From assembly GCA_050287605.1 (NCBI GenBank), contig JBNKCG010000018.1, forward strand, positions 43,291 through 107,290: a stretch of 64,000 nucleotides of DNA. Reading direction: 5' to 3'. A program made the translations under genes and the position numbers. The notes beneath the pieces are model-generated. The model searched no databases. It saw nothing but the letters and a program-made list of their open reading frames with translations, and was not told the DNA's origin. Shown piece by piece: positions 2-45,458 of the stretch (within the stretch, counting starts at the first letter, position 1; each line of letters opens with the position of its first letter). This DNA is from Gammaproteobacteria bacterium (lineage in GTDB: Bacteria > Pseudomonadota > Gammaproteobacteria > QQUJ01).

Positions 2-997
2 GTGTTGGAGAAGGAGGCGCTGGTACCCATGGGAAGCTGTCTCTGCGGGCAGGCCGCGGACGACAACCAACTGATCATCGATTCCAAGGGCCGCTCCTGC
101 CAAGGCTACCTGGGACGTTCCGCCATCGGCGCGGCCTCCTCCACCTTCATTGCCGTACCCTTGCAATACCGCGGCACGACCCTGGGCGTCTACAACCTCT
201 TCCTCGACCAGGGCGTGGAACCCAACGACGATCTGCGCGAACTGCTGATCAGCATCGGCCGCCATCTGGGCATGGCCATTGAAAAGGCGCAGGTGGACAA
301 AAAGGCCCAGTTCCTCTCCATCATGCAAGAGCGGACCATGCTCTCCCACGAACTCCACGACTCCGTCGCACAGACCATCGCCAGCTTGCGTTACCGCGTG
401 CGGGCGATGGACGAGCTGCTGCCGGCGGACACCTCGGACAAGGTTCGCACCGAGCTGATGCAGATTCGCAACACCCTCGACGAAGCGCACACGGAACTGC
501 GTTCGTTGATGGTGCACTACCGCGCACCCATGGACGAACGCGGCCTGTTACCCGCTATCGAAGAATTGATCGAGCGCTTCCGCCGCGAAACCGGCATAAC
601 GCTGTTCGTACAGAAAGACTGCGGAGGCTCCAACTTACCGGCGATACTCGAAATGCAGGTGCTGCGCATCATTCAGGAGGCGCTGGCCAACATCCGCAAA
701 CACAGCAGAGCGCAAACGGTGCGGATTCTGATGCGCTGCACCGACGGCGAATACTACCGCGTGTTGGTCGAAGACGACGGAGTAGGATTCGCCCGCCCCC
801 CTGACAAAGGGCACCCTGGCGAGCATGTCGGACTGGGCATCATGCAGGAGCGCGCCCATCGCCTGGGTGGCACCCTGACTATCGAAAGCGAACCGAACGA
901 AGGGACCCGCGTCGAACTGACCTTCCGGCATCGACGCGACCTTTCCCAACACCCCGAAAAGAAGAGCGAGATTTCTCATGCGTGTGCTGATCATTGA
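2..997 (+). CDS. sensor histidine kinase, cytoplasmic GAF sensor plus HisKA_3/HATPase (NarX/UhpB-type); 5' end truncated by the window edge
   Basis: GAF-like N-terminal region; H-box HELHDSVAQTIASL; C-terminal HATPase motifs (DDGVGF, GLGIMQERAHRLGG); overlaps the following response-regulator gene. Confidence 0.8.
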   Translation: MLEKEALVPMGSCLCGQAADDNQLIIDSKGRSCQGYLGRSAIGAASSTFIAVPLQYRGTTLGVYNLFLDQGVEPNDDLRELLISIGRHLGMAIEKAQVDKKAQFLSIMQERTMLSHELHDSVAQTIASLRYRVRAMDELLPADTSDKVRTELMQIRNTLDEAHTELRSLMVHYRAPMDERGLLPAIEELIERFRRETGITLFVQKDCGGSNLPAILEMQVLRIIQEALANIRKHSRAQTVRILMRCTDGEYYRVLVEDDGVGFARPPDKGHPGEHVGLGIMQERAHRLGGTLTIESEPNEGTRVELTFRHRRDLSQHPEKKSEISHACADH

Positions 998-1643
998 CGA
1001 TCATGCCCTGTTCCGGGTCGGACTTCAGGAGTTGCTGGAGCGCCGTGGCATTGAGGTGTGCGGAGCTGTCGGCGATGGTCTGGAGGGACTGCGTCTTGCC
1101 GATCAACTGCAACCGGACATCGTATTGCTGGATCTGCGCATGCCCAACACCGACGGCCTCACCGTATTGAAATCGATACGCGAGTCCGGACTCGGGATGC
1201 CCGTGGTCATGCTAACCACCAGCAGCGACGAACGCGACCTGGTGGAGTCGCTGCGTTCCGGTGCGCAAGGCTATTTGATTAAGGATATGGAGCCCGACGA
1301 GGTGGTCAACGCGCTGAGTGAAATCATCGCCGGTCAGACCGTCGTGGCGCCCGGCCTCACCAGCGTTCTGGCCCAAGCGGTTCGTTCCGACCCCAGCGAA
1401 AGCGAAGTCAACGACAGCCCGTTCGGTGAACTCACGCCACGCGAAACCGAGATCCTGTGCCACCTGGCCGAAGGCCAGAGCAACAAGGTCATCGCGCGCA
1501 ACCTGGGAATCTCCGACGGTACCGTCAAGCTTCACGTCAAGGCGATTCTGCGCAAGCTCGGTGTCCACTCCCGCGTGGAGGCGGCAGTCATGGCCGTCCA
1601 GCACGGACTCAACCGCAAGCAGATGGAATCCCACGGCGCCTGA
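978..1643 (+). CDS. NarL/FixJ-family response regulator (REC + LuxR-type HTH)
   Basis: MRVLIIDDHALFR...DIVLLDLRMP receiver domain; C-terminal LTPRETEILCHLAEGQSNKVIARNLGISDGTVKLHVKAILRKLGV. Confidence 0.9.
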   Translation: MRVLIIDDHALFRVGLQELLERRGIEVCGAVGDGLEGLRLADQLQPDIVLLDLRMPNTDGLTVLKSIRESGLGMPVVMLTTSSDERDLVESLRSGAQGYLIKDMEPDEVVNALSEIIAGQTVVAPGLTSVLAQAVRSDPSESEVNDSPFGELTPRETEILCHLAEGQSNKVIARNLGISDGTVKLHVKAILRKLGVHSRVEAAVMAVQHGLNRKQMESHGA

Positions 1644-1675
1644 GTCACCGGCGTAGTCCCATCACGCCCGTTCCC

Positions 1676-2143
1676 ATGATCACGTTCCGCGATCTCGTCG
1701 ATTCCTGCCGGCCCGAAGTCGACGAACTCTATCCCTGGGACCTTGCCGACGCCCTCGCAAGTTCCGAGGCGTTACTTCTGGTCGATATCCGCGAGCCGTA
1801 CGAATATGCGGCACTGCATATCGCCGGATCCATCAACGTGCCCCGCGGAGTATTGGAACCGTCGTGCGACTACGGCTACGAGGAGACTATCCCGGAGCTG
1901 GTCGCCGCACGCCAAGCGCCGATCATTGTGATTTGCCGATCAGGAAACCGCAGCCTGCTGGCGGGCAAAGTGATGCAGCAGATGGGGTATCGCAACGTGC
2001 GTTCGTTGGCCACCGGACTGAAGGGTTGGAACGACTATGATCAGCCACTGAGTGACGCGCGAGGCTCGCTCATCGACGGCGATACCGCGGAATCCATCCT
2101 TTCACCGCCGTTGCGTCCGGAACAACTGCCTCCCAAGGCGTAA
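1676..2143 (+). CDS. rhodanese-domain sulfurtransferase-like protein
   Basis: Rhodanese fold with active-site loop VICRSGNRS; start moved to ATG at 1676 (MITFRDL) because the track ORF N-terminus overlaps the regulator gene. Confidence 0.7.
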   Translation: MITFRDLVDSCRPEVDELYPWDLADALASSEALLLVDIREPYEYAALHIAGSINVPRGVLEPSCDYGYEETIPELVAARQAPIIVICRSGNRSLLAGKVMQQMGYRNVRSLATGLKGWNDYDQPLSDARGSLIDGDTAESILSPPLRPEQLPPKA

Positions 2144-2155
2144 ACCAGCGCCACC

Positions 2156-4141
2156 TCACTGAATCACACGAAACGCTTCTGCCTCGATAAACACCTTGAC
2201 CAACCGCTGATCGATCTTTCCGGCCGCCACCTCTTTGTGGAGAATATCCAACGCCTGGTCTTCCGGCAGGCCCCGTTTGTAGGGCCGATCGCCCGCAGTC
2301 AGCGCATCGTAGATGTCCGCAACGGTCATGATCTTTGACTGCAGCGGAATCTCATCGGTGCCCAACCCCAACGGGTAACCAGAGCCATCGAGTTTTTCGT
2401 GATGCGCATAGGCGATGCTCGCCACGTTTTGCAGCGTCCCGCTCCACGGAATCAAACTGAGGAACGCATAGGTGTGGCTGACGTGGGATTCGATCTGCAG
2501 ACGCTCGTCGGGGCTGAGACTCCCCTGCGCGGCGGTGAGATCGGAGAACTCGAAATCCTCGAGGATGGGCGCATCGCCGCCATCCTCAACGGGGAACGTG
2601 TACGAAAGCAGTTCGCTGAGTTCCGTAGGCACCTCCCGACGCGATACCGTGGGTTCGTTGCTCTTCACCACCAACTGCAGAAAATGGTCAAGGCGATCGC
2701 GCTCTTTGACCAACGCGTCTTCCGTGGCCCGGCGCATCTCGAGCAGCTCTTTCGGGCTCAGCGACCCTTGCTCGTGCAGCTGAATCAGTTTCTTGTACGC
2801 GCGTCGTTCCAAGCTCGCCCGCGCATAGGCAAACCGCTGTTTGATCAGCGTGAGCTGGTGCGGATAGAGCTTCTTCGGCTTGGTCAAAACATGCTCGCGA
2901 ACGCCAACCTTGCCGAAATCGTGCAACAGGGCTGCGTAGCGCAGCTCGCGCATCTGATCGGGGGAGAACTGCACCTGCTTCAGACCGTGACCCGATGCTC
3001 GGTCCACCGCCGCCGCCAAGCGCTCGGTGTATTCGGCGACTCGGAACGAGTGTCCCGCCGTGACGGGATCTCGTGCTTCAATGGCCTGAACGGAGGCCCG
3101 AATGAAGCTCTCGAACAGCTCCTCGATATCCGAATACAATTGCGCATTGCGCACGGCTATCCCCGCCTGCGCGCAGATCCCGGTCAGGATCTCCAGATCG
3201 GCCTGTTCAAACGCCTTGGGATCGGTGGTGCTGTCGACCTGAATCAGGCCGAGAACCTCGTCGCCCACCAATAACGGCGCGCACATCATGCTGCGCAGCG
3301 ACAGGTTGATGATCGAATCGCGAGCCCCGAAGCGCTCATCGCCCATGGCGTCCACCGACAGAATGGCCTGTTTGTGCGCTACCACCTGCTCGACGATAGT
3401 GCTCGAAATGGCGATCTCACTGTCATGCTCTCCCGCTGCCCCCCGGGTCTTCTGGGCGACGGGTATCAGCTGCTCTTTATCCCGCGAACGTAACAGCACA
3501 AACGCGCGCTCGGCCCCGGGAAATATGTCAAAGATGTAATCCAGCATCTTTTGCATCAGCGAGTCGCGGTCGTCCAACGCCCCCAGCGCCACACTGACCT
3601 GAGCCAGCGCCTGCAACCGGCGCAAGGCCACCGCCAGCGACTCATCGGCATGCTGATCAAGGGAGAAGCGGGCAAGGACACTCTTCGAAGCATCGAGCAT
3701 CACGCTCATCTGCCCCGGTGTACGGTCTTCGACCTTCAGCTCGGGATGGGAACTTTCGGAGTGGCGGCTGAACACCCCGCCCTTCGATCGCCCGGTCGTG
3801 GTCAGACCAACGCCAATGTGGGAGGTGTCCTTGATGTCTTCTCGGTAAACCAGCAAGGTCGACGAAATACGAATCTCGTCACCATCGTTCAGGGTATGCA
3901 CGCGGTTGGCGTCCAGGAGCGAACCATTGAGCAGGGTGCCGTTGGTAGACCCCAAATCTTCAAGGACATATCCCTTATTATTTGAGCGGATATGCGCGTG
4001 GCGCCGGCTCACCTGACCGTCGGGAAGCGGCAAAAATATGCGGGGATCGATCCCTTCCGGCGATCTTCCCAAATAGACCTCATCCGCGAGTTTAAAGACC
4101 CGCCCCGTATCGTGGCCTTCGCGGATTTGCAGGGTAGCCAT
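2156..4141 (-). CDS. FHA-GAF-HD-GYP multidomain c-di-GMP phosphodiesterase
   Basis: N-terminal FHA (GRSPEGIDPRIFLPLPDGQVSRRHAHI...GSTNGTLLNG); central GAF; C-terminal HD-GYP (HHEKLDGSGYPLGL). Confidence 0.85.
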   Translation of the reverse strand: MATLQIREGHDTGRVFKLADEVYLGRSPEGIDPRIFLPLPDGQVSRRHAHIRSNNKGYVLEDLGSTNGTLLNGSLLDANRVHTLNDGDEIRISSTLLVYREDIKDTSHIGVGLTTTGRSKGGVFSRHSESSHPELKVEDRTPGQMSVMLDASKSVLARFSLDQHADESLAVALRRLQALAQVSVALGALDDRDSLMQKMLDYIFDIFPGAERAFVLLRSRDKEQLIPVAQKTRGAAGEHDSEIAISSTIVEQVVAHKQAILSVDAMGDERFGARDSIINLSLRSMMCAPLLVGDEVLGLIQVDSTTDPKAFEQADLEILTGICAQAGIAVRNAQLYSDIEELFESFIRASVQAIEARDPVTAGHSFRVAEYTERLAAAVDRASGHGLKQVQFSPDQMRELRYAALLHDFGKVGVREHVLTKPKKLYPHQLTLIKQRFAYARASLERRAYKKLIQLHEQGSLSPKELLEMRRATEDALVKERDRLDHFLQLVVKSNEPTVSRREVPTELSELLSYTFPVEDGGDAPILEDFEFSDLTAAQGSLSPDERLQIESHVSHTYAFLSLIPWSGTLQNVASIAYAHHEKLDGSGYPLGLGTDEIPLQSKIMTVADIYDALTAGDRPYKRGLPEDQALDILHKEVAAGKIDQRLVKVFIEAEAFRVIQ

Positions 4142-4538: not shown

Positions 4539-5006
4539 ATGGGGTCCGACAACCTGATCGTTCCGAAGCAACTGAGCCAGGTGACACTATGGGTTCATCC
4601 CGAAGGGATTGTCGAGGGGGCACTGTTCGTCAGTATCGAACACGACCCCACCAACCCCGAGGATCCTGAGGAGGTGCTCAACTACTCCTCCCCCTTTATC
4701 GTCGTTCGTCGCCAAGACCCCAGCGAGCTGCGGTTTTACAACAAAAGCTCCATCGTGCGCGTCCACTACAGCGCCGACGAGCCGGACTCCGCTGCCACTG
4801 CGCGCCTGCGGTGCACCTTTCACATGATGGACGGCAGCCTGCTGCGAGGCGAGATCCGGCGCAGCCTACCGCCTGATCGTTCACGATTCTATGACTTCCT
4901 CAACCTGGAACAAGAGCGCTTTGCGAAAATCCACCTCGACGATGGCCAAGTGTGTCTGGTGAACAAATCCTACATCGTATGCGGTCTTGATGAGAGCGCG
5001 CGCTGA
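4539..5006 (+). CDS. hypothetical protein, first gene of the kinase/PilT operon
   Basis: ORF with GGGGAAAA ribosome-binding-like sequence before ATG 4539 (track ORF starts 4479); 58 bp upstream of the kinase gene; no confident domain call. Confidence 0.5.
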   Translation: MGSDNLIVPKQLSQVTLWVHPEGIVEGALFVSIEHDPTNPEDPEEVLNYSSPFIVVRRQDPSELRFYNKSSIVRVHYSADEPDSAATARLRCTFHMMDGSLLRGEIRRSLPPDRSRFYDFLNLEQERFAKIHLDDGQVCLVNKSYIVCGLDESAR

Positions 5007-5063: not shown

Positions 5064-7514
5064 ATGGGAATTCTGGACGGAATCCGCATCAACAAAGCGG
5101 TCGCGACCATCGTCAAGGCCAAGAGCGCCGCGACACCTGAGGTTGCCGACGCCATTTTCCAACTGAAGCAGGTCGGCGAAGGCGCCGCCGAAAAGCTCAT
5201 CGATGCCCTCGGTCGTACCCGCACCCCTGGCACCGTGGTGGCCGTACTGGGCACGTTTCTCGACAATTCCACACTGCACCACTTCGCCAACGCCCTGAGC
5301 AGCAAGGACACCACTGTCGTCGACGGTGTCGCCAAAGTTCTCAGCGCTGGCAAGCGCTACGACCCCAACCTGCTGCTGGACGTCTACGCCGACCCCACCA
5401 GCCCCAAAGGATTGCTCTCGCGCATCCTGCTCGCCCAGCGCGAGCGATTGAACATCCGATCGCTGTTACGACTGATGGGTCGCATTCCGCCCGAAGCACG
5501 CAGCGGCGTATTCCGCATGATGGAGGAGATCGCCAGCCCGGAGAATGTCAACGATCTCATCGGTTTCGTCGACAGCGAAGACCCGGTGATCCGCCTGCAC
5601 ACCGCGCGCGTCCTGCGACGCTTCAGTACCGAAGCCGTTCGCGACGCACTGATGAAACTGCTGGGCGACCAGGCCAAGGCCGTGCGGTTGGAGGCGCTGA
5701 CGGGGCTAGGTGACATGAGCATACCGGTGGACGTGAAACCCATCTGCAAAATGTTGCGCGACGCGGACATGACTGTGCAGAGCAAGGCCATCGACACAGT
5801 GATACGCATCAACTCGCCCGACTCCGTCCACTACCTGCTGGAGATACTGCAGGACGATTCCGAGTACGTGCGCCGCGCCGCGGTGGAGGTGCTCAACGAG
5901 GTTGGCAACACCAACGCCATCAAGGATCTCATCGGCGCCCTGCGCGACAAGGACTGGTGGGTACGGGTGCGTGCCGCCGACGCATTGGGGAGCATCGGCG
6001 GTCCGCGGGTGGTCGAATCCGTCCTCTCGCTGGTCAAGGACGAAGATGAATTCATCCGCCGTTTCGCCATCGAAATCCTCAACTCCACCAAAGACAGCCG
6101 CGCCAAGAATTATTTGGAGGAGGCACTCAAGGACGAGGATTGGTGGGTGCGCGAACGGGCAGTGGATGCCCTCGCGGCCATCGGCGATTCCTCGGCCGTT
6201 CCGAAACTGGTCGATCTGATGAAACGCGACAATCGTGCCGCTCCCGTCGTGATCAAGGCACTGGCCTCAATGGGCGACAACCGGGCGGTCAAACCCATCA
6301 TGGAGATGCTGCACAACCCCGACACCGGGGTGCGCAAAGAGGCGCTGCGCGCCCTGGCCGTTCTTGCTGATGAGGAAAACGTCGACGAGGTCAGGCGTGC
6401 CGCGCAGGAGCTGTGCAACTCCTCCAACGACGATATCCGGGCGCTCGCCGACACCACCGTCAGCACCTTGATCACCAAGCCGCTGGCGCAACGCAAGAAA
6501 GGCGCCGCCGAGGAACCGGTGCGCACCGGCTCGACCATGCTCCAGGTTCGCTCCATGCTGGGAATGGAGACACCGAGCAATGCCAGCGATGTCACCATCG
6601 TATCCGACGTCACACCGCCGAGCGCCCAATCCACCCCTGCTGCGGCAGGCGCTATCGATGCGGCAAAACTCAAGGCCGGCGAAGTCCTCGCGGACCGCTA
6701 CCGCGTCATCCGACACATCGGGCGCGGCGCTTTTGGCGTGGTGGTGCTGGTGCAGGACATAATGGTCCATGAAGATATCGTCTTGAAGTTCATCACCCCG
6801 CAGCTCACCTCCTCCGAAGACGTCATCAAACGCTTCGTGCTGGAGATGAAATACGCCCGCAAGATCACGCACGAAAACGTCATCCGCATCTACGACTTCG
6901 TCACCTTCGGCAACTCCTACGCGATGTCCATGGAGTACTTCGAGAGCCACTCCCTGGCAGCGGAGCTCAAATCCGGCAAACCGATGACGCTGCAGCGTGG
7001 ACTGCGCATTCTGCGCGACATCTGCTCCGGAATGATCATCACCCATCGCGGCAACCTGGTACACCGCGACCTCAAACCCTCGAACATCCTCATCGACGAC
7101 AACGATCTGGTTAAAATCGTCGATTTCGGTCTCGCGGCCGCGGCGCGTGAAGGCGAGTCCCGGCTGACCAAGACCGGAATCATCCTCGGCACGCCAACCT
7201 ACATGGCACCCGAGCAGGTCAAAGGCGCCAAAGTCGACGCCCGCACCGATGTCTACAGTCTCGGCATCATCATGTACGAGATGTTCACCGGCCGTCCGCC
7301 TTATGTGGCCGACGATCCGATGGGAATCCTGTTTCAGCACATGGAGGGCAAGGCCAAGCCGCCCCGCGAGGTCAATCCCGAGATTCCCGAAGAGCTCGAT
7401 GCTCTGATCCGCAAAGCCATCGCCCGCAAGCCGGACAATCGCTTCGCCAATATGGAAGAATTGCGCCAAGCCGTCGAACTGCTGCTCAAGCAGCTGGGGG
7501 ATGAGGCGTCATGA
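5064..7514 (+). CDS. HEAT-repeat (PBS-lyase type) Ser/Thr protein kinase
   Basis: Repeated DKDWWVRVRAADALGSIG / DEDWWVRERAVDALAAIGD HEAT motifs; C-terminal Hanks kinase (GRGAFGVV, HRDLKPSNILI, DFGLA, GTPTYMAPE). Confidence 0.85.
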   Translation: MGILDGIRINKAVATIVKAKSAATPEVADAIFQLKQVGEGAAEKLIDALGRTRTPGTVVAVLGTFLDNSTLHHFANALSSKDTTVVDGVAKVLSAGKRYDPNLLLDVYADPTSPKGLLSRILLAQRERLNIRSLLRLMGRIPPEARSGVFRMMEEIASPENVNDLIGFVDSEDPVIRLHTARVLRRFSTEAVRDALMKLLGDQAKAVRLEALTGLGDMSIPVDVKPICKMLRDADMTVQSKAIDTVIRINSPDSVHYLLEILQDDSEYVRRAAVEVLNEVGNTNAIKDLIGALRDKDWWVRVRAADALGSIGGPRVVESVLSLVKDEDEFIRRFAIEILNSTKDSRAKNYLEEALKDEDWWVRERAVDALAAIGDSSAVPKLVDLMKRDNRAAPVVIKALASMGDNRAVKPIMEMLHNPDTGVRKEALRALAVLADEENVDEVRRAAQELCNSSNDDIRALADTTVSTLITKPLAQRKKGAAEEPVRTGSTMLQVRSMLGMETPSNASDVTIVSDVTPPSAQSTPAAAGAIDAAKLKAGEVLADRYRVIRHIGRGAFGVVVLVQDIMVHEDIVLKFITPQLTSSEDVIKRFVLEMKYARKITHENVIRIYDFVTFGNSYAMSMEYFESHSLAAELKSGKPMTLQRGLRILRDICSGMIITHRGNLVHRDLKPSNILIDDNDLVKIVDFGLAAAAREGESRLTKTGIILGTPTYMAPEQVKGAKVDARTDVYSLGIIMYEMFTGRPPYVADDPMGILFQHMEGKAKPPREVNPEIPEELDALIRKAIARKPDNRFANMEELRQAVELLLKQLGDEAS

Positions 7515-8608
7515 CGGCGCGCATCGACGCCTTTCTGCAACTGGGTCGGGAACAGGGTTGTTCCGACATACACCTAGCGGTCGGCACCCCCCCTATCCTG
7601 CGCCTTCACGGAGAGCTGACGCCGGTACGCTACCGGGATCTCGACATCGATGAACTGGAGCGGCTCGTCGACGAAATCCTCAACGACGAACAACGCACCC
7701 ATTTCAACAGCGGCGGCGATCTCGATCTCTCTTATGAGAGCGAGTCGGCTGGACGATTTCGCGTCAACCTGTTTCGTAAAATGGGAGGACTGGGCGCCAG
7801 CTTTCGCGTCATTCCCGCAGATATCCCAACGCTCGACAGCCTCAATCTGCCGCCTGTCGTAGAAAAGTTCACCGAATTGCACCAGGGTTTGGTGCTGGTT
7901 ACCGGAGCGACGGGAACGGGCAAGACCACCACCCTCTCGGCGCTGATCCACCACATCAATCAACGTCGCAAACTCAACATCATCACGCTCGAAGACCCTA
8001 TTGAATTCGTACATCAGAGCGCCGAATCGTTGATCGTGCAGCGTGAAGTCGGTGTGCACGTGCCCAGTTTCGCCGAGGGCCTGAGAGCGGCATTGCGCGA
8101 AGACCCCGACATTATCCTGGTAGGCGAGCTGCGCGACCTGGAGACGGTGAATCTGGCCATGGTGGCAGCGGAAACCGGGCACTTGGTGCTCGGCACGCTG
8201 CATACCACAACGGCAACCAAGACCCTTGATCGCATCATCGACGCCCTGCCCGTCGAGCAAAAACTTCAAGGTATGACGTCGTTGTCGCAAAACTTGCGCG
8301 CCGTCATCAGCCAATCCCTGGTGCGCACCCCCGACGGGCGTGGTCGCAAGGCCATCTGCGAGATCATGGTCATGACCCAGGCGATCTCCCATCTGCTGAT
8401 GAGCGGCAAGGTGTTTCAGATTCCCAGTAAGCTGCAAACCGGGCGCGATCGCGGCATGCAACTACTCGATCAGGCGCTATTGGAGGCGGTGCAAGCGAAA
8501 GAGATCGACCCGGACGACGCCTACCGCCACGCGGTGGACAAGAAGCAGTTCCAGCGCTTCGTCACCGATCCCAGCCTGCTACCCACGGTGAGTTTGGTTG
8601 GACAATAG
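7511..8608 (+). CDS. PilT-family hexameric ATPase, divergent paralogue
   Basis: PilT-like N-domain; Walker A GATGTGKTTT (canonical PilT has GPTGSGKSTT); ATGA overlap with the kinase stop. Confidence 0.85.
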   Translation: MTARIDAFLQLGREQGCSDIHLAVGTPPILRLHGELTPVRYRDLDIDELERLVDEILNDEQRTHFNSGGDLDLSYESESAGRFRVNLFRKMGGLGASFRVIPADIPTLDSLNLPPVVEKFTELHQGLVLVTGATGTGKTTTLSALIHHINQRRKLNIITLEDPIEFVHQSAESLIVQREVGVHVPSFAEGLRAALREDPDIILVGELRDLETVNLAMVAAETGHLVLGTLHTTTATKTLDRIIDALPVEQKLQGMTSLSQNLRAVISQSLVRTPDGRGRKAICEIMVMTQAISHLLMSGKVFQIPSKLQTGRDRGMQLLDQALLEAVQAKEIDPDDAYRHAVDKKQFQRFVTDPSLLPTVSLVGQ

Positions 8609-9728
8609 CGGCAGCATGGAAACCCCCGACGCCACCCCCTCCACCACCAGCGCTGCGATTCAGCATCGCATCGACTCCTTTCTCGAGCTGGTGGTGAAGC
8701 AAGGGGGATCGGATCTCCACCTGGTCTCCGGCAATCCGCCTCGCATTCGGCTGTTCGGCGAAGTGCTAAGCATCAAATATCGGTCTCTATCCCCCGACGA
8801 GACCCTGGACCTGCTCTACGAGATCATGCCGCCCATGGCGAAACGCACCTTCGAGAGCGTACACGGGGTCGACTTTGCCTACGAGATACCCGGCATGTCG
8901 CGCTTTCGCGTCAACGCCTTTCGCCACCTCGGCGGCATCGGTGCGGTGTTTCGCGTGATTCCCAGCAAAGTCCCCAGCCTCGACTCCATGCATCTGCCAC
9001 CCATCTGCCGCACGCTGTGCGAACAACGTAAAGGTCTGGTGCTGGTCACCGGCCCCACCGGATCGGGTAAATCAACCACCTTGGCGGCGATGGTGGATCA
9101 CATCAACGAAATGCGTAAAGCGCATATCATCACCATCGAAGACCCCATCGAATATCTGCACGACCGCAAGAACTGCCTGATCAGTCAACGCGAAGTGGGC
9201 ATCCATACCGAGAGCTTCGCCGCCGCACTACGCTCGGCGGTTCGCGAAGATCCCAACGTGCTGCTGGTGGGCGAGATGCGCGACTTGGAAACCATTCATC
9301 TCGCCGCAACGGCTGCAGAGACCGGCATCCTGGTAATGGGGACACTGCACACTAACGGTGCAGCCGCCGCAGTGGACCGCATGATCAACGTCTTCGCCGC
9401 CAAAGAGCAGGCGCTGATCCGTACCATCCTGTCAACGTCGTTGGTGGGCGTCTTGTCCCAGCAACTGGTAAGACGCGCCGATGGGCGGGGTCGCGTTGCA
9501 GCCATCGAAGTGATGCTGAACACCGCCGCCGCCTCCAATATGATTCGCGAAGGGAAAACCGAGCAACTCGCTAACGTTATCCAAGGCGGCGGGCTACTGG
9601 GTATGCAGAGCATGGACACGGCACTGCGGCGACTGCTGGACGCTAAACAGATATCGGGCACCGAGGCCTACATGAAGGCCAACAACAAAGCGGATTTTGC
9701 GCAGTACTGCGAAGACCCGCTGGAATAG
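8598..9728 (+). CDS. PilT/PilU-family twitching-motility-type ATPase
   Basis: GPTGSGKSTT Walker A; IITIEDPIEY; C-terminal ASNMIREGK...GMQSMD matches the PilT AIRNLIRE motif; overlaps the upstream gene by 11 nt. Confidence 0.85.
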   Translation: MDNSGSMETPDATPSTTSAAIQHRIDSFLELVVKQGGSDLHLVSGNPPRIRLFGEVLSIKYRSLSPDETLDLLYEIMPPMAKRTFESVHGVDFAYEIPGMSRFRVNAFRHLGGIGAVFRVIPSKVPSLDSMHLPPICRTLCEQRKGLVLVTGPTGSGKSTTLAAMVDHINEMRKAHIITIEDPIEYLHDRKNCLISQREVGIHTESFAAALRSAVREDPNVLLVGEMRDLETIHLAATAAETGILVMGTLHTNGAAAAVDRMINVFAAKEQALIRTILSTSLVGVLSQQLVRRADGRGRVAAIEVMLNTAAASNMIREGKTEQLANVIQGGGLLGMQSMDTALRRLLDAKQISGTEAYMKANNKADFAQYCEDPLE

Positions 9729-9836: not shown

Positions 9837-10511
9837 ATGGCCAAGCTGGTGATGACCCTGGACGGAGCGGTCATTAAAGAGATCAAGATCGACCGGGAGA
9901 CGTTGAGCATCGGACGCCGTCCCGGCAACGACGTGCAGCTCAACGATCTGGCCGTCAGCGGCCGCCACGCGCTGTTTAGCGCGATGCACAACACCTACAT
10001 CGAAGACCTGGGCAGCACCAACGGCACGCTGGTCAACGGCAAAAAGGTCAAAAAGGCCATCGTCAAACACGGCGACGTAATCCAGATCGGGGGGCACCAA
10101 TTCACCTACCTCACCAAGGAAGAGATGCCCTACGAACCCACCATGTTCCTCAAGGCCGAATTCGAGCCCACCATGACGTTGGATACCGACTCCGGGCAAC
10201 GGCAGGTGACGGCCGACCCGCGGGAAGAGGGAAGGCTGGGTGCGGTCAAGATCCTCAGCGGCCCCATGAAAGGGAAAGTGCTGGAGCTGCGCAAACCCTT
10301 CAATACCGTCGGCATCAACGGCGTCAAAGTGGCACTGATCTCACGCGAGAGTACCGGCTATACCATCCATGGCATCAAGAGCCGCAAGTTGCGTCGCGCC
10401 TCGGACCTGCCGACGGTCAACGGCGAACCGGTGGGTGATAGCAGCGTCCGCCTCCAAGAGAAGGACGTCATCGAAATGGTGGACACCAAGATGCAGTTCT
10501 ACTTCATGTAG
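9837..10511 (+). CDS. FHA-domain protein, possibly with a second degenerate FHA-like domain
   Basis: LSIGRRPGNDVQLNDLAVSGRHALF...GSTNGTLVNGKKV FHA signature; C-terminal half repeats a similar pattern (TVGINGVKV...VNGEPV). Confidence 0.8.
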   Translation: MAKLVMTLDGAVIKEIKIDRETLSIGRRPGNDVQLNDLAVSGRHALFSAMHNTYIEDLGSTNGTLVNGKKVKKAIVKHGDVIQIGGHQFTYLTKEEMPYEPTMFLKAEFEPTMTLDTDSGQRQVTADPREEGRLGAVKILSGPMKGKVLELRKPFNTVGINGVKVALISRESTGYTIHGIKSRKLRRASDLPTVNGEPVGDSSVRLQEKDVIEMVDTKMQFYFM

Positions 10512-10525
10512 CGCGACGGCACTCG

Positions 10526-11932
10526 CTACGCCTCTGCGGTCCTCCAACCCTCGAACCAGCGCAGTTTGTCGCGCAGCTTGACCACCTCGCCGACGATGAT
10601 CAGCGTCGGCGGGCGGATCTCCTCCCCCTCCACCACCTGCTCCATGGTCGCCAGGGTACCCACCAACACCTTCTGATCGGCCGTGGTTCCCTTCTGGATC
10701 AACGCGATAGGTGTCTGCTGCGGCATGCCGTGGGCTATGAGCTGGCGACAGATGATGGCCAGCCCATGCAGTCCCATGTAGAACACCACCGTCTGCTGGG
10801 GATGCGCCAACGCCGGCCAGTTGAGATTGGTCGTGCCGTCCTTCAGATGCCCCGTCACGAAGACGCAGGCCTGAGCATGGGCGCGGTGCGTGAGCGGAAT
10901 GCCGGCGTAGGAAGCGCACCCGGCGGCGGCCGTGATGCCGGGAACCACCTGGAACGGAATGCCCTCCTGGGACAAACGCTCGATCTCTTCGCCGCCGCGG
11001 CCAAAAATGAAAGGATCGCCGCCCTTGAGACGCACAACGCGTTTGCCTTCGCGCGCCAGCTTGACCATGAGTTGATTGATGTCATCCTGCGGCAGGGTGT
11101 GACGGTCGCGTTCCTTGCCCACGTTGATGCGCTCGGCATCGCGGCGCGTCATCTCCAACACGGCGGGCGCCACCAAACGGTCGTACAGCACCACGTCGGC
11201 CTGCTGCATCAAGCGCAGGGCGCGGAAAGTGAGCAGATCGGGATCGCCCGGTCCGCCACCCACCAGGTAGACCTCCCCTATCGTTGACGCGTGGCCGGCA
11301 GCGCTCTCCAGGGCCAGTTCCAAGGCCTGCTCCGCGGCCTGATCCTGACCACTGAACACGCGTTCGGCGATGGGACCCTGCAACACGCTTTCCCAAAACA
11401 CGCGACGTTGCCGGCCTTCGGGGATACGGGCCTTGACCCGGTCGCGAAACCGACTGACCAGGAGGGCCAGCCTCCCGTAAGCGGCGGGCACCATGGACTC
11501 GAGGCGCGCCCGGATCAGACGCGCCAACACCGGCGCAGCACCACCGCTGGACACGGCAGCGATCACCGGCGAGCGATCGACGATGGAGGGCATGATGAAG
11601 CTGCACAGTGCCGGACTGTCCACCACATTGACCGGGATATTGCGCGCCTTCGCCGCGTTGGACACGACGCGGTTGATGGCCGAGTCATCGGTGGCGGCAT
11701 ACACCAGGGCATATCCGGCATCAAAGTCGTCATCCGATACCGTACGCTGCCGCCACTCGATCTCGCCCTGCGCGTGGCGCTCGGTCAGCACGGGAGCCAA
11801 CGCGGGCGCCACCACCACCACCCGGGCACCGGCCTGCAACAGCAGCGCAATCTTGCGCGCAGCCACCTCGCCACCGCCCACCACCAGACAGCGACGCTGT
11901 TTCAGATCGAGGAATATCGGTAAGTAGTCCAC
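10526..11932 (-). CDS. cysG: siroheme synthase (uroporphyrinogen-III methyltransferase / precorrin-2 dehydrogenase / ferrochelatase)
   Basis: [28 protein letters not shown]-terminus; methyltransferase motifs [15 protein letters not shown]. Confidence 0.9.
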
Positions 11933-18621: not shown

Positions 18622-19617
<996 letters not shown>

Positions 19618-19657
19618 TCACCGTCAGCGACGGCATTGCCGGTCGGAGGTACACCGC

Positions 19658-20179
19658 TCACTCGACGATGAGCACCCGCATCCCCGCCGGCACCTGCTCG
19701 AACAATGCGATCACGTCGTCGTTGCGCATACGGATGCAGCCGTGGGAGCCGGGCTCGCCCACGGGCTCGGTGTCGGGGCAGCCGTGGATGTAGATGAAGC
19801 GGCGCTGGGTATCGACCTCCCCCAGCCGGTTGCGCCCGGGCTCCAGCCCGCACAACCAGAGAATGCGGCTGAGAATCCAGTCGCGCCCCGGGTGTGCAGC
19901 CATCAGCTCGGACGTGCAGATCTCGCCGGTGGGACGGCGTCCCACGAACACCGCCCCGCGGGGCTGGTCGGCGCCGATTCTGGCACGCACCGTGTGCCAG
20001 CCGCGCGGCGTCTGCCCGCTGCCACTGAGTTCCCCGGCACCCGCCGCCGCAGTGGAGACCGGGTAGCTGAACCGACACCGACCTGCGCTGACGAACTCCA
20101 GCCGCTGGCGGCCCAGATCGATGCGCAAATAACGATCCGGGGTTGCGGCGGACTCGCTGCGCTCGCTTGTCACGTCCAC
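19658..20179 (-). CDS. L,D-transpeptidase (YkuD) catalytic-domain protein with no apparent signal peptide
   Basis: IHGCPDTEPVGEPGSHGCIRM active-site region; N-terminus MDVTSERSES is not hydrophobic. Confidence 0.7.
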   Translation of the reverse strand: MDVTSERSESAATPDRYLRIDLGRQRLEFVSAGRCRFSYPVSTAAAGAGELSGSGQTPRGWHTVRARIGADQPRGAVFVGRRPTGEICTSELMAAHPGRDWILSRILWLCGLEPGRNRLGEVDTQRRFIYIHGCPDTEPVGEPGSHGCIRMRNDDVIALFEQVPAGMRVLIVE

Positions 20180-20640
20180 TCCGGGTAGGGATGCTCGGCC
20201 AGGTAGGCGTTGAAAAACCGCACATCATCCGACACCTCCTCGCCTACCCACTGGGGAATGACGAAATGTTCGTCGGGTCGGCTCAATTCGATCTCCGCCA
20301 GCACCAAGCCGGCGTTGGGCCCTTCAAAACGATCCACCTCCCAGAGGTGTTCACCTGCCGGCACGAAAAAGCGACGCTTTTCGATGTGCCGCCCGGCGCA
20401 GTGGTGGTCGAGGAGCTGCCGAGCATCCTCGATGGGAATCGGATACTCGAACTCGGATCGCGCGATGCCCCGGGTTGGTCCTTTGACGGTAAGCCACGCT
20501 TGGTCGCCGGCAATGCGCACCCGCACGCTCGCCTCGGGCCCGCGCGCCAGATACCCTTGGCGTACCGGCACCGAGTTGACCGCCTGGTGCTCCCAGTCGT
20601 CGGATCGGGTGAGAAACTTGCGCTCGATTTCGACACCCAT
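20170..20640 (-). CDS. CYTH-domain protein (CyaB / thiamine-triphosphatase family)
   Basis: MGVEIERKFL N-terminal EXEXK signature of CYTH triphosphate-tunnel enzymes; 156 aa. Confidence 0.75.
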   Translation of the reverse strand: MGVEIERKFLTRSDDWEHQAVNSVPVRQGYLARGPEASVRVRIAGDQAWLTVKGPTRGIARSEFEYPIPIEDARQLLDHHCAGRHIEKRRFFVPAGEHLWEVDRFEGPNAGLVLAEIELSRPDEHFVIPQWVGEEVSDDVRFFNAYLAEHPYPEWT

Positions 20641-23572: not shown

Positions 23573-25600
23573 GTGATATTGAGTCACAGGTGGAGGGGAT
23601 CTGTGCGGAGAGTGGACGCTAACCTCGGCAAGCCGGCCTTGGCACGATGTGGACCGGGCGCGCTGTTGGGATTATTGCTGATCCAAGCCGGCGTTTCGGC
23701 TCACGCCGAGAACATCGACTTACCGGTCTCGGGAGAAGACGTCTACTTCGGGGAACTGCCCATTGTGCTATCCGCGACACGGCTCAACCAGCCGATCGCC
23801 GAGGCACCGGTGGCCGTCACCGTTATTGACCGGGAAATGATCGAAGCCTCGGGTGCGCGCGAACTGGCCGATGTGTTTCGCCTGGTGCCGGGATTCTTGG
23901 TAGGGTCTTTTGACGGTCACCAGCGTTCCGTCGGCTATCACGGATTGCTCGACAGCTTCAACCGCCGCATGCAGGTGTTGGTGGACGGACGGTCGGTCTA
24001 TACCCCCACCTTCGGTGGCGTCCGCTGGAGCGATCTGCCGCTGGCGCTCGAAGATATCGAACGCATCGAAGTGGTGCGTGGACCCAATGCAGCCACCTAC
24101 GGTCCCAACTCCTTCATGGGCATCGTGAGTATCACGACGCGCCACGCCGCCGACACGCCGGGAACGCTGGTGAAGGCCGCCGCGGGTGACCCGGACTATG
24201 GCTCCGTCCTGGTGCGCAACGGGACTAATTTCGGCGACCTTGATCTACGGGTTACGATTCAGACAGATCGCGACACCGGATTTCCCGGCGTCGAAGACAC
24301 CAAACAGACCGATCGCCTCAATGTACGGGCCGACTATCAAGCCACCGCGCGGGATAACTTCGTGCTCAACACCGGGTACAGCGCTGGACCTCGCCGCGAA
24401 GGCGAAGCCACCGACACCAATCCCACGCGCAATATCGACGCCGAAAGCTATTACGTCCAAGGCCATTGGCGTCGAACACTTAGTCCCAACGAAGAGATCA
24501 GCATCCAGTTCTATCGCAACAGTTTCAAATCCGAGGATACGTTTTTTGCCACCAGCGGCCCACTTTCCGGCGAAATCGATTTCGGCCGCGAAGGCCGACG
24601 CACCGACATCGAACTGGAACACACCCTGATTCCCAGTGATACGGTGAAGATTGCTTGGGGTGCGGAGTTGCGGCGAGATCAGGGGCTGTCAAATAATATG
24701 TTCATCGGAGGCGATTACGCCAACGATGTCAAACGCCTGTTCGGCAACGTGGTGTGGGAGTTCGTACCCGGCACCATACTCAACACCGGTGCAATGATCG
24801 AGAAAAACGACCTGACCGGAACCGATATCTCTCCTCGCATTGCCCTGAACCATCGCATCAATTCAAACCACAGCGTGCGGATAACCGCTAGCCACGCTAC
24901 CCGAACACCCTCCCTCTTCGAAGGCGCCGTCGATTTCTACCACATCCTCGATTTTGGCGGCACCCCGGTGATACTGCAGAACTACCTGACCACCGACCGG
25001 CTCAAACCCGAACAAATCGATTCCATTGAGTTCGGGTACATCTTCGACCTTCCACGAAAAGGCGTTAACGGAGATATAAAACTATTCCGCGAACGTATTC
25101 GCGACCTTATCTCGGACGACACGTTCACGCTGATCACTAGTCATGGCTTACCCAACATAGGTGGTGAATCCTCTACCTTTGGCAACGTCGACAGCGCCAC
25201 GATAGACGGCGTCGAGGCGCAAATCGAGTGGCGTCCCGACAGTCGGAATCGAATCATCGCGGGAGGCGCTCTTCTTCACGCCGAAAGCGACAACATCGCC
25301 GAGGAGTATTCCAAGACTGTTCCCTCAGCCATTGTCAATTTATTGTGGATTCATCGCTCCCTGACCGGCCTGTCGACTGGGGTTTCGTACTACTACACCG
25401 ACGAGTGTCGATACCTAGGAGGAGATCAAATCGATGCCGTCAGCCGGCTGGATTTTCGAGTCTCCCAAAAGTTCGGCCCCCGCAACAATGCCGGCGAAAT
25501 CGCGTTTGTCTTTCAAAATATTTTCGGAAATTACTCGGATTTCTCCGAGACAAACACCATGGACCAGCGTGCTTACGTTAGCTTGAGCACACAGTATTAG
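23573..25600 (+). CDS. TonB-dependent outer-membrane receptor
   Basis: Signal peptide, plug domain (EAPVAVTVIDREMIEASGARELADVFRLVPG), long beta-barrel with C-terminal aromatic residue. Confidence 0.8.
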   Translation: MILSHRWRGSVRRVDANLGKPALARCGPGALLGLLLIQAGVSAHAENIDLPVSGEDVYFGELPIVLSATRLNQPIAEAPVAVTVIDREMIEASGARELADVFRLVPGFLVGSFDGHQRSVGYHGLLDSFNRRMQVLVDGRSVYTPTFGGVRWSDLPLALEDIERIEVVRGPNAATYGPNSFMGIVSITTRHAADTPGTLVKAAAGDPDYGSVLVRNGTNFGDLDLRVTIQTDRDTGFPGVEDTKQTDRLNVRADYQATARDNFVLNTGYSAGPRREGEATDTNPTRNIDAESYYVQGHWRRTLSPNEEISIQFYRNSFKSEDTFFATSGPLSGEIDFGREGRRTDIELEHTLIPSDTVKIAWGAELRRDQGLSNNMFIGGDYANDVKRLFGNVVWEFVPGTILNTGAMIEKNDLTGTDISPRIALNHRINSNHSVRITASHATRTPSLFEGAVDFYHILDFGGTPVILQNYLTTDRLKPEQIDSIEFGYIFDLPRKGVNGDIKLFRERIRDLISDDTFTLITSHGLPNIGGESSTFGNVDSATIDGVEAQIEWRPDSRNRIIAGGALLHAESDNIAEEYSKTVPSAIVNLLWIHRSLTGLSTGVSYYYTDECRYLGGDQIDAVSRLDFRVSQKFGPRNNAGEIAFVFQNIFGNYSDFSETNTMDQRAYVSLSTQY

Positions 25601-25627
25601 CGGCACCCATCAATTTGCAAAATCGCG

Positions 25628-26605: not shown

Positions 26606-26611
26606 GCCGCA

Positions 26612-43944: not shown

Positions 43945-44017
43945 GCTGTACTCCTCGCTACGGGGTGGAGGGTTTGCAGCCGTTTACCATACTACACCAC
44001 AATTCCTGGTACTTTTG

Positions 44018-44678: not shown

Positions 44679-44713
44679 GGCGGAGCCGCAACGCCCTTCG
44701 GCAAGGCGCAGCG

Positions 44714-45421: not shown

Positions 45422-45458
45422 TTCCGGGTTTCAGTCGAGGCCCTTAAACACCTTGCCG

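Follow-up and report, generated by a model that had tools for sequence, protein, structure and literature searches.

An FHA-GAF-HD-GYP protein with an HdiD-type insertion, encoded beside a Ser/Thr kinase and two PilT-family ATPases in sulfur-oxidising gammaproteobacteria

Background

Can a eukaryotic-like Ser/Thr kinase act on the degradation of c-di-GMP, and what would such a signal control? Two-component systems, small-molecule sensors, light and gases are all known to act on enzymes of c-di-GMP metabolism. For Hanks-type Ser/Thr kinases such an input is, to our knowledge, documented on the synthesis side only, in DgcB of Bdellovibrio. The locus presented here raises the question because it encodes a protein, hereafter FGH, in which an FHA domain, a potential reader of phospho-Thr, stands in front of GAF and HD-GYP domains. 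An earlier note on this DNA, made from sequence alone, proposed that FGH is a phosphodiesterase gated by binding of a phosphorylated partner, with the adjacent kinase as the obvious candidate.

FHA is unmentioned in the main text of the most complete survey of HD-GYP proteins, none of the listed papers that contain both FHA and HD-GYP names the two together in title or abstract, and no paper combining PilT, "FHA domain", "threonine kinase" and c-di-GMP was found in the literature.

Domain architecture and distribution of FGH

The FGH gene is an open reading frame of 661 codons for amino acids with an ATG start, and occupies exactly positions 2156..4141 of the minus strand (stop codon 2156..2158) in the window, that is, in the whole 64-kb stretch of DNA that was analysed. 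Its delimitation is supported by the reading frame, Pfam matches, the family alignment and 100% identical copies of the protein, one in the NCBI database and one encoded on a Logan contig. A scan for promoters and terminators around the gene gave counts not above those in shuffled sequence.

All three domains named in the earlier note are real, with Pfam matches to FHA (aa 24-92, E 8.6e-16), GAF (aa 192-330, E 5e-15), HD (aa 362-485, E 3.9e-14) and HD_5 (aa 535-646, E 1.7e-32), and with their motifs at the expected positions. The FHA domain (aa 1-100; 3842..4141, minus strand) is predicted to form an eleven-stranded beta-sandwich and carries the motifs G25-R26, S45-R-R-H48 and S65-T-N67-G68-T69. 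Invariance within the family was scored on an alignment of 74 full-length members. Among these, the pocket residues G25, S45, R46, H48, S65 and N67, together with G68, are invariant, and the other two pocket residues, R26 and T69, are at least 90% conserved; the phospho-Thr-binding residues are thus intact, as had been claimed. In the predicted structure the FHA domain begins at residue 3, leaving no N-terminal tail.

FHA and HD-GYP are not fused directly, contrary to the earlier description. They are separated by a poorly conserved linker (aa 101-175; 3617..3841, minus strand), rich in Ser, Thr and Gly, and then by GAF with its flanking helices (aa 176-340; 3122..3616, minus strand), including a long helix 313-357 that runs into HD-GYP. 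The linker amounts to about 75 low-confidence residues and is mostly disordered, with pLDDT below 50 at 103-131, 139-145 and 157-165. Across aa 95-190 the 74 aligned members share no conserved Thr; S146, S152 and S183 are the sole positions with Ser or Thr in at least 80% of sequences, most often Ser, a residue that FHA domains do not bind. Because the linker is long, disordered and unconserved, recruitment or scaffolding by the FHA domain appears more likely than the rigid allosteric gating that had been suggested.

The fusion had also been called rare. It is indeed a minority form: of the nearest 150 clusters at 50% identity, about 24 carry it. With at least 118 clusters at the 90% identity level it is nevertheless not unique. 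Its carriers are mostly uncultured sulfur-oxidising gammaproteobacteria; members are also found in isolates, namely Inmirania thermothiophila and Noviherbaspirillum/Herbaspirillum, which are possible experimental hosts.

An apparently active HD-GYP domain

The HD-GYP domain has a complete fold (about 180 aa) and is divided into an N-terminal part (aa 341-426; 2864..3121, minus strand), aligned to PmGH, V-cGAP3 and PA4781, and a C-terminal part (aa 544-661; 2159..2512, minus strand). Its metal ligands H364, H407-D408, H553, H580-H581 and D609 align with H189, H221-D222, H250, H276-H277 and D305 of PmGH, the GAF-HD-GYP protein of Persephonella marina (PDB 4MCW), and the signature HHEKLDGSGYP (aa 580-590) agrees with the consensus HHExh(D/N)GxGYP. 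All these ligands are invariant in the 74 members, as are K421-P422, E582, G586, G588, Y589, P590, D612, R619, P620 and Y621, so the domain is not degenerate. Catalytic and substrate-binding residues are also nearly invariant over 150 more distant cluster representatives. Such constancy of the active site argues for selection on catalysis, and FGH is apparently an active c-di-GMP phosphodiesterase.

The RxYK motif (R619-P-Y-K622) and K421, the lysine in the KPG loop, fit the c-di-GMP type, which these features mark (Galperin & Chou). PmGH shares the ligand set H-HD-H-HH-D, GYP, RxYK and the KPG-loop Lys, but differs in having Glu185 and a trinuclear iron centre, and it lacks both FHA and the insertion described below. 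At the position of Glu185, FGH has Val360 (DPVTAGH against DPETQNH), so the third-metal ligand is absent. We place FGH in the binuclear class because position 360 is not Glu and varies across the 74 members; pGpG is therefore likely to be its main product.

An HdiD-type insertion in the substrate loop

The label of a tri-domain protein, correct as to the three domains, overlooked that HD-GYP is split by a helical insertion of 117 aa (aa 427-543; 2513..2863, minus strand), situated within the KPG substrate loop. In the AF2 model (pLDDT about 78-94 in this region) it consists of two long helices (427-457 and 463-494), two short ones (507-513 and 529-535) and a beta-hairpin with strands 515-517 and 523-525. 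Excision of aa 425-539 yields a single contiguous alignment to solved HD-GYP domains, in which the invariant G540 takes the place of the displaced Gly of the KPG loop. The insertion is kept in 79 relatives, including a Leptospira metagenome-assembled genome, with N495, P497, L535, G540 and L542 invariant (numbering in that alignment is shifted by -1).

The same topology was described in 2026 as the "HdiD" insertion domain of Leptospira LIC_11189 (PMC12943098). By its predicted structure the FGH insertion matches this HdiD, which puts FGH in the HdiD-containing subfamily; the two proteins also share the order GAF then HD-GYP and intact catalytic residues, and the Leptospira homologue mentioned above is 48% identical to FGH over aa 311-657, insertion included. 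They differ in input. HdiD has been tied to response-regulator architectures with a REC or REC-like N-terminus, in the setting of a two-component system, and FHA is absent from that account (PMC12943098); the N-terminus of FGH is instead FHA, and a Hanks-type kinase module lies beside it. REC itself was recognised by Pfam in just 2 of the nearest 150 cluster representatives, and when the N-terminal regions of FHA-less relatives were turned into a profile, it matched no receiver in PDB.

A conserved six-gene module

FGH is transcribed divergently from an operon whose genes follow in the order unk155, HEAT-repeat kinase, PilT, PilT and FHA protein. This order of six genes is kept in 11 independent loci beyond the window (type A: L002-L008, L083, L084, L085 and L001, the last being an independent assembly with the same sequence as the window), at FGH identities of 45-50% and with different outer flanks. 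Type-A carriers belong to Ectothiorhodospiraceae, Thioalkalispiraceae, Thiohalomonadales and Inmirania, all related sulfur-oxidising gammaproteobacteria. At FHA-less GAF-HD-GYP(HdiD) relatives the module is absent in all 73 genome loci.

The first gene of the divergent operon, unk155 (4539..5006, plus strand), encodes a conserved hypothetical protein of 155 aa, modelled as two small Sm/SH3-like beta-barrels; comparison with PilZ showed it not to be PilZ-like. It is followed by a Ser/Thr kinase of 816 aa (5064..7514, plus strand; Pfam HEAT_2 3.6e-54, Pkinase 6.5e-53), with HEAT repeats at about aa 160-450 and the kinase domain at aa 546-800. The kinase is of Hanks type: GRGAFG, IVLK, HRDLKPSN, DFG and MAPE motifs are present and conserved in 9 orthologues, and Thr702 of the activation loop is invariant in the ortholog alignment.

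Both ATPases of the window belong, by sequence, to the PilT/PilU family of type IVa pilus ATPases, with TIGR01420 scores well over the cutoff of 319.1 bits. PilT1 (365 aa; 7511..8608, plus strand; 426.3 bits) shares 4 nt at its start with the stop of the kinase gene, is 70-71% identical across loci, and has a divergent AIRNLIRE region and a conserved C-terminal tail FQRFVTDPxLLP. PilT2 (8616..9728, plus strand; 449.9 bits) carries the AASNMIRE motif; we take its start at the ATG at 8616 (370 aa, as called on the identical contig), the mechanical reading frame beginning at TTG 8598. We know of no PilT-type ATPase that binds c-di-GMP. The module and the rest of the 64-kb window yielded no c-di-GMP receptor, neither PilZ nor GGDEF nor any other.

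Comparison of loci thus gives strong support to a putative link between FGH and the neighbouring kinase, and it is plausible that the cluster connects kinase signalling to c-di-GMP control of pili. The proposal that the adjacent kinase is the partner of FGH gains from the module order in the 11 loci, but the kinase is not universal in the family. In Oxalobacteraceae, the neighbours are another kinase together with a T1SS-like OEP / 2xFHA / HlyD set, and PilT is absent. In one further clade no kinase gene lies within 9 kb; there a GGDEF gene adjoins FGH and a MshEN-T2SSE ATPase is located about 2 kb away.

The flanking GAF-HisKA_3 kinase, NarL-type regulator, rhodanese, CysG and SerS are common only to the close relative Inmirania and not to the other module loci, and were rejected as partners. 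A PP2C phosphatase gene directly follows FGH in one type-A locus (L084), which speaks for the link to kinase signalling; it is not a conserved member of the module, and none is present in the window.

FHA224 and a candidate phospho-Thr motif

The last gene of the module (9837..10511, plus strand; Pfam FHA 5.2e-22), syntenic in all type-A loci, encodes an FHA protein of 224 aa, hereafter FHA224. An N-terminal FHA domain, 41% identical over the core to that of FGH, is followed by an acidic linker and a degenerate FHA-like C-terminal domain (hhalign of N- against C-domain: probability 60%, E 8.7e-5). The linker contains a candidate phospho-acceptor and FHA-ligand motif (10131..10181, plus strand), Y99-E-P-T102-M-F-[I/L]-x-A-E-[I/F]-E-x-T112-x-[I/V/M]-[M/I/L], with T102 encoded at 10140..10142 and T112 at 10170..10172. 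All homologues (120/120) keep Y99, E100, P101, T102, M103, F104, A107, E108 and T112, and the residue at +3 from T102 is I/L, that at +3 from T112 M/I/L. At 8 more distant loci, position 102 holds Thr in 7/8 and Ser in 1/8 (L004), and T112 is missing in 4/8. On these sequence grounds YEPT(102)MF[I/L], which has the form of a textbook FHA ligand, is the best candidate for a docking site made by the kinase and read by FGH.

FHA224 recalls GarA and OdhI (ETTS motif), likewise small FHA proteins whose acidic Thr motif lies in a flexible stretch and has a hydrophobic +3 residue, and which are either encoded alongside Hanks kinases or under their control; GarA also matches in FHA fold. The motif is, however, N-terminal to FHA in GarA/OdhI and C-terminal to it in FHA224, where the degenerate FHA-like domain follows. 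The best NCBIfam hits of FHA224 are FhaB/FipA (60 bits, cutoff 125) and OdhI (59 bits, cutoff 200), but all scores lie far under the equivalog cutoffs, so FHA224 does not belong to these families and the resemblance is one of logic only.

Other acceptor sites were considered and rejected: the linker between HEAT repeats and kinase domain has just a loosely conserved T/S-x-[IV] patch, and the Thr-rich N-terminal tail of PilT2 was found in the window sequence alone. In PilT1, the +3 position within the otherwise conserved FVTDPxLLP tail varies among S, A and D (8 sequences).

Proposed mechanism and alternatives

On balance we lean towards the view that FGH is a competent binuclear HD-GYP(HdiD) phosphodiesterase, recruited through its FHA domain within the kinase/FHA224/PilT module and acting on pili. 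FGH would be a cytoplasmic HD-GYP phosphodiesterase with FHA in the N-terminal input position. The HEAT-repeat kinase would phosphorylate a Thr, with Thr102 of FHA224 as the best candidate and the activation-loop Thr702 of the kinase itself as the alternative, and the FHA domain of FGH would dock on the phospho-Thr. Docking would tether or cluster the phosphodiesterase beside the two PilT-family ATPases, the local c-di-GMP pool would fall, and type IV pilus retraction or twitching would be altered. GAF may serve as a second, small-molecule input. Against this view speak the family members that lack the module, the exceptions at T102 and T112 in distant loci, the lack of a c-di-GMP receptor near the ATPases, and the PDB match of the insertion-excised domain treated below. 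A more specific, previously undescribed circuit can be put forward tentatively: the kinase would mark YEPTMF[I/L] of FHA224 as a GarA-like adaptor, FGH would read the mark, and either the local fall in c-di-GMP or the complex itself would switch a dedicated PilT pair. The enzyme chassis would then have stayed the same in evolution while a phospho-Thr reader took the place of the REC input.

The substrate could be another one. Since the insertion occupies the loop that touches the second base, the substrate specificity of FGH is uncertain, and HdiD may reshape the pocket so that 3'3'-cGAMP or mixed dinucleotides are degraded. The best PDB sequence match of insertion-excised FGH is indeed the cGAMP-specific V-cGAP3 (E 5.9e-32, against 8e-22 for PmGH), the interrupted KPG loop contacts Gua2, the base where adenine is tolerated, and in the paper that named HdiD a greater permissiveness for other dinucleotides is raised as a speculation (PMC12943098). 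We hold this unlikely: FGH keeps Lys622 in RxYK, a motif that in cGAMP-shifted enzymes reads RxxQ or RxxN (Galperin & Chou), LIC_11189 with the same insertion is reported, from earlier experiments cited there, to be an active phosphodiesterase in a c-di-GMP context (PMC12943098), and the FGH clade with an adjoining GGDEF gene also lies near an ATPase with the c-di-GMP-binding MshEN domain. Catalysis itself might be secondary, FGH being mainly a non-catalytic scaffold or c-di-GMP sensor, comparable to degenerate HD-GYPs or to the RpfG-GGDEF interactions, whose FHA and HdiD surfaces assemble kinase, FHA protein and PilT ATPases. Some HD-GYP proteins signal by protein-protein contacts, HdiD is a protruding helical hairpin without solved homologue, and HEAT repeats as in the kinase are typical scaffolding modules; the invariance of metal ligands, GYP and substrate residues, extending almost unchanged to the distant representatives, nevertheless makes this highly improbable.

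Control in cis has a precedent in Bdellovibrio bacteriovorus DgcB, an FHA-GGDEF diguanylate cyclase that established FHA control of c-di-GMP synthesis and is activated when its own phosphorylated N-terminal tail binds FHA; its linker has 20 aa (PMC6733907). Like FGH, it has a consensus phospho-Thr FHA N-terminal to a c-di-GMP-metabolising domain and relies on the concept of Ser/Thr kinase input, though for synthesis rather than degradation. In a similar manner, or in that of GarA and OdhI, the kinase could mark a Thr in the FGH linker, which would be bound by the FHA of the same protein or of its dimer partner, so that the dimer rearranges and the phosphodiesterase is switched on or off. The linker of the window protein is rich in Ser and Thr (GLTTTGRSK, SRHSESS), and the long helix of GAF-HD-GYP proteins such as PmGH suits dimer signalling. 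The DgcB-style mechanism was nevertheless rejected because no linker Thr is conserved, the three conserved positions being mainly Ser; moreover, FGH has no tail of its own to carry a Thr, has the long disordered linker and GAF in place of 20 residues, and the invariant TxxPhi motif sits on FHA224 instead. Cis-autoregulation as a whole thus seems quite unlikely. It is more doubtful still that the FHA fusion and its neighbourhood are uncoupled, the FHA target being encoded elsewhere and the kinase/PilT cluster merely sharing a conserved chromosomal position. The related lineages of all type-A loci and the differing neighbours in other FGH clades would agree with this, but the six genes remain clustered although identity is down to 45-50% and the outer flanks differ, never accompany FHA-less relatives, and include FHA224, another FHA protein, whose FHA-ligand motif is invariant; contexts other than type A also retain Ser/Thr-kinase or FHA genes.

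Should recruitment through FHA hold, the FGH family would be the degradation-side counterpart of DgcB and part of a direct pathway from a eukaryotic-like kinase through a cyclic dinucleotide to a pilus motor, and a two-component REC input would have given way to a phospho-Thr reader during evolution. Since FGH is encoded together with its probable kinase, a probable phospho-adaptor and two putative pilus-retraction ATPases, the pathway is testable with few purified proteins. FGH also gives HdiD a second, non-REC context, which helps to separate the role of the insertion from that of the input domain.

At the level of the whole system, a parallel exists in Sulfolobus, where the FHA protein ArnA and ArnB together with the Hanks kinases ArnC/ArnD regulate the archaellum, a type-IV-pilus-like machine. 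There too, Ser/Thr phosphorylation read by FHA controls a machine driven by the PilT/FlaI superfamily; the Arn system differs in being archaeal, in acting on transcription without a cyclic dinucleotide, and in proteins unrelated beyond the FHA fold. The FHA domain of ArnA appears among the structural matches.

Domain architecture and active site of FGH

The gene of the FHA-GAF-HD-GYP protein, here called FGH (2156..4141, minus strand), starts with ATG and codes for 661 amino acids. NCBI has a 100% identical protein, from a contig of 174,743 bp, and a Logan assembly contig encodes it as well, so the ORF has been called as a gene and is not open merely by chance. The tri-domain organization proposed in an earlier note is borne out by Pfam, which places FHA at aa 24-92 (E 8.6e-16), GAF at aa 192-330 (E 5e-15), HD at aa 362-485 (E 3.9e-14) and HD_5 at aa 535-646 (E 1.7e-32). 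The FHA residues quoted there are present as G25-R26, S45-R-R-H48 and S65-T-N67-G68-T69, and the HD-GYP domain is intact as claimed, with H407-D408 and HHEKLDGSGYP at aa 580-590. Among 74 full-length relatives that were aligned (46-87% identity), the five canonical residues of the FHA pocket are invariant save R26, for which conservation is 90% or more. The HD-GYP ligand set (H364, H407, D408, H553, H580, H581, D609) is complete and invariant, as are the GYP motif, K421 and R619-P620-Y621; neither metal ligands nor phospho-Thr-binding residues are missing. No N-terminal tail precedes the FHA domain. The spacer between FHA and GAF, about 75 residues long, is poorly conserved and mostly modelled with pLDDT <50, and the family alignment contains no conserved Thr within it.

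The position of Glu185, the third-metal ligand of the solved HD-GYP protein PmGH, is occupied by Val360 in FGH and is variable across the family, which assigns FGH to the binuclear subgroup. In every feature of sequence and fold that was tested, FGH agrees with an HD-GYP domain of this subgroup and with an FHA domain. Binuclear HD-GYPs often stop at pGpG, and one GAF-HD-GYP protein activated by cAMP has been described (Galperin & Chou survey). The complete active site makes FGH very probably an active cyclic-dinucleotide phosphodiesterase, and its RxYK motif, which is of c-di-GMP type, makes c-di-GMP the probable substrate.

Helical insertion in the HD-GYP domain

The Pfam HD_5 match to FGH covers profile positions 63-169 only, and every match to an HD-GYP protein in PDB is broken in two pieces (phmmer). 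[quoted passage not shown] When aa 425-539 were excised in silico, the rest of FGH aligned contiguously to the solved HD-GYPs V-cGAP3 (E 5.9e-32), PmGH (8e-22) and PA4781 (6e-20), with H553 corresponding to PmGH His250 and the invariant G540 to the Gly of the KPG loop. As this loop contacts the second guanine of c-di-GMP (Galperin & Chou survey), the alignment indicates that the insertion arises from the second-guanine-contacting loop. Such a split HD-GYP domain is not new: the REC-GAF-HD-GYP protein LIC_11189 of Leptospira interrogans has an insertion of identical topology and position, described in January 2026 and named HdiD (PMC12943098). A protein from a Leptospira MAG is 48% identical to FGH aa 311-657, and signature residues of the insertion do not vary among 79 relatives spread over many phyla. 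FGH shares HdiD with the LIC_11189 subfamily but departs from it in lacking the REC-bearing response-regulator architecture, to which the widespread HdiD was reported to be "strongly linked" (PMC12943098).

Distribution of the FHA-GAF-HD-GYP architecture

A word-indexed search with FGH returned 3,569 relatives, and 118 of the 120 best 90%-identity clusters combine FHA, GAF and HD/HD_5 in 639-695 aa. The named isolates with this architecture include Inmirania thermothiophila, Noviherbaspirillum cavernae, N. massiliense and Herbaspirillum spp. When 1.84 billion 50%-identity representatives were scanned exhaustively with HMMER, 3,325 proteins reached E <= 1e-30; among the best 150 of these, Pfam assigned FHA to about 24 and canonical REC to 2, the remainder having GAF and HD-GYP behind an N-terminus without domain assignment. 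In contigs sampled at one genome per species, FHA is present in 10 of 79 ORFs. The view that FHA is rarely fused to HD-GYP thus holds in that the architecture is a minority one, but these counts describe a sizeable conserved family rather than a rarity.

The main text of the Galperin and Chou HD-GYP survey never mentions FHA, and among the 25 papers listed, of 32 that contain "FHA" as well as "HD-GYP", no title or abstract combines the two. The literature search found nothing experimental or descriptive on FHA-GAF-HD-GYP proteins or on a kinase-PilT-PilT-FHA module. The fusion appears to be uncharacterised.

A conserved six-gene module

Five plus-strand genes are divergent from FGH. They encode a 155-aa protein (unk155, 4539..5006), an 816-aa HEAT-repeat Hanks-type Ser/Thr kinase (HEAT-STPK, 5064..7514), two PilT/PilU-family ATPases, both above the TIGR01420 cutoff (7511..8608 and 8616..9728), and a 224-aa FHA protein (FHA224, 9837..10511); the stop of the kinase gene overlaps the start of the first ATPase gene. 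The module proteins were compared by tblastn with 80 genome loci that contain an FGH relative. In seven of these the match is full-length and carries FHA (45-48% identity; Thioalkalispiraceae, Thiohalomonadales and Ectothiorhodospiraceae MAGs), and in all seven the five neighbouring genes are retained in unchanged order. In the other 73, the GAF-HD-GYP(HdiD) relatives lack FHA, and the module is absent from every one. The module recurs in Inmirania (L083) and in two large metagenomic contigs (L084 and L085), and the outer flanks of these three loci differ. Judged by identical lengths of the longest contig, about ten further contigs are apparently common to the FGH, unk155 and FHA224 homologue lists, which is suggestive only. 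In L084, a gammaproteobacterial contig, a PP2C Ser/Thr phosphatase gene (11069..11794) directly follows FGH; PP2C has no tblastn match anywhere in the 64-kb window.

The unk155 gene always leads the kinase operon. Its family comprises about 250 unnamed proteins of 150-180 aa with occasional weak DUF6812 matches, and its invariant residues include H20-P21, R65-F-Y67, C92, M97-D-G99, R116, D119 and N142-K143, with no invariant Thr. The confident model contains two tandem small Sm/SH3-like beta-barrels with weak structural neighbours only; unk155 is not a PilZ domain.

Neighbourhoods in other clades

In Noviherbaspirillum and Herbaspirillum, genes for a different Ser/Thr kinase (Pkinase + DUF4384) and a caspase/FGE-sulfatase protein lie upstream of FGH, and those for an outer-membrane efflux protein (OEP), a two-FHA protein of 830-855 aa and an HlyD-like protein follow it. 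N. cavernae (L082, 10001..17424) and Herbaspirillum sp. (L086, 9001..16211) show this set, with two DUF4399 genes also upstream of FGH and the HlyD-like protein being an HlyD/AprE-type adaptor; the Oxalobacteraceae neighbourhood is possibly secretion-related. A more distant clade (41% identity; L088, 4897..10914, and L089, 719..4946) is divergent from a 351-aa GGDEF protein and a REC-like protein and has no kinase within 9 kb; in L088, an MshEN-T2SSE ATPase, a c-di-GMP-binding type of pilus ATPase, is encoded some 2 kb away from FGH. In a fourth clade the closest kinase is 7 kb off. Across these contexts, FGH repeatedly has genes for Ser/Thr kinases and FHA proteins as neighbours, and in two of them ATPases of type-IV-pilus type are close by. 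The adjacent kinase, named earlier as the obvious candidate, has comparative support within the module loci, where the order of FGH and kinase is conserved, but the exact partner differs between clades.

Candidate docking sites

After its FHA domain, FHA224 has an acidic linker with the motif Y99-E-P-T102-M-F-[I/L]-x-A-E-[I/F]-E-x-T112-x-[I/V/M]-[M/I/L], whose Y, E, P, T, M, F, A, E and T are invariant in 120 of 120 homologues. Both T102 and T112 have a hydrophobic +3 residue, as is classic for FHA ligands; the motif used is pT-S-I-V in DgcB and ETTS in GarA/OdhI (PMC6733907). Of 8 more distant module-bearing loci, 7 keep T102 and one (L004) has Ser instead, and T112 is missing in 4; being better kept, T102 is the primary candidate. 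That it is the ligand of the FGH FHA domain is a tentative proposal, and a rather doubtful one. The C-terminal half of FHA224 lacks pocket residues and probably represents a degenerate FHA-like domain (hhalign probability 60%, E 8.7e-5). HEAT-STPK has all catalytic motifs, and its invariant activation-loop Thr702 is an alternative candidate docking site.

The first PilT-like ATPase is divergent in the AIRNLIRE region (AISHLLMS) and carries a C-terminal extension, FQRFVTDPxLLP, conserved in 8 loci. Canonical PilT is not known to have an extension of this type, which may serve for docking or be phosphorylated.

Proposed mechanism

The sequence-level basis of the following proposal is that FGH combines a complete active site, including the c-di-GMP-type RxYK motif, with an intact domain for reading phospho-Thr, and that it is associated at operon level, in a conserved way, with a competent Hanks kinase, a second FHA protein bearing an invariant TxxPhi motif and two PilT-family ATPases. 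HEAT-STPK would phosphorylate either FHA224 at T102 or itself in the activation loop, and the FHA domain of FGH would bind this mark. Because that domain sits on a long flexible tether, binding would mainly recruit or cluster the phosphodiesterase rather than gate it allosterically. Local c-di-GMP would then drop and pilus retraction behaviour shift, and GAF would add a second input. Type IV pilus dynamics as the output is conceivable, if short of an even chance, and forms the weakest link, since no c-di-GMP receptor gene is encoded in the module or elsewhere in the window, which is otherwise housekeeping.

Functional coupling of FGH to the kinase module is, in our judgement, highly probable. 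Fortuitous synteny is disfavoured, as the module is kept at 45% identity while its flanks change, and FHA-less relatives have no adjoining module. A role as non-catalytic scaffold is likewise disfavoured by the invariance of the catalytic residues. DgcB resembles FGH in concept and differs in construction; DgcB-like regulation in cis is disfavoured too, FGH having no conserved Thr of its own. Hydrolysis of cGAMP, or a relaxed substrate range, stays a live alternative to c-di-GMP specificity, given the similarity to V-cGAP3 and the location of the insertion in the base-2 loop. The domain logic of FGH will not surprise a signalling specialist; a conserved, self-contained module with an invariant phospho-motif makes the connection from kinase to c-di-GMP directly testable.

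Other genes in the window

Three genes (2..2143, plus strand) lie immediately downstream of FGH and are convergent with it. They encode a GAF-HisKA_3 histidine kinase, truncated by the edge of the window, a response regulator of NarL type and a single-domain rhodanese, with 12 bp between the rhodanese and FGH stops. This trio does not belong to the module; Inmirania is the sole other case in which it is conserved beside FGH, and dsr-like Fe-S/NrfD genes come after it there. An apparent sensing cluster (23573..30268, plus strand) consists of a TonB-dependent receptor, an ABC_sub_bind-like periplasmic protein and a 1218-aa hybrid histidine kinase (sCache_4-HAMP-PAS-HisKA-HATPase-REC-Hpt). It begins a stretch of lower GC content (about 24-36 kb; 0.53-0.55 versus 0.60-0.65), which also spans the housekeeping genes pdxJ-recO-era-rnc-lepB-lepA. 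Two sizeable ORFs, 43943..45499 (plus strand, 518 aa) and 19590..20228 (minus strand, 212 aa), gave no hit in Pfam at E <= 1e-5. The release-factor-2 ORF (51858..52769, minus strand), followed by lysS (50287..51780), is only 303 aa long and begins at position 35 of the Pfam PCRF profile. A programmed +1 frameshift is well known in prfB, and the short ORF is consistent with it, the first part lying upstream in another frame.
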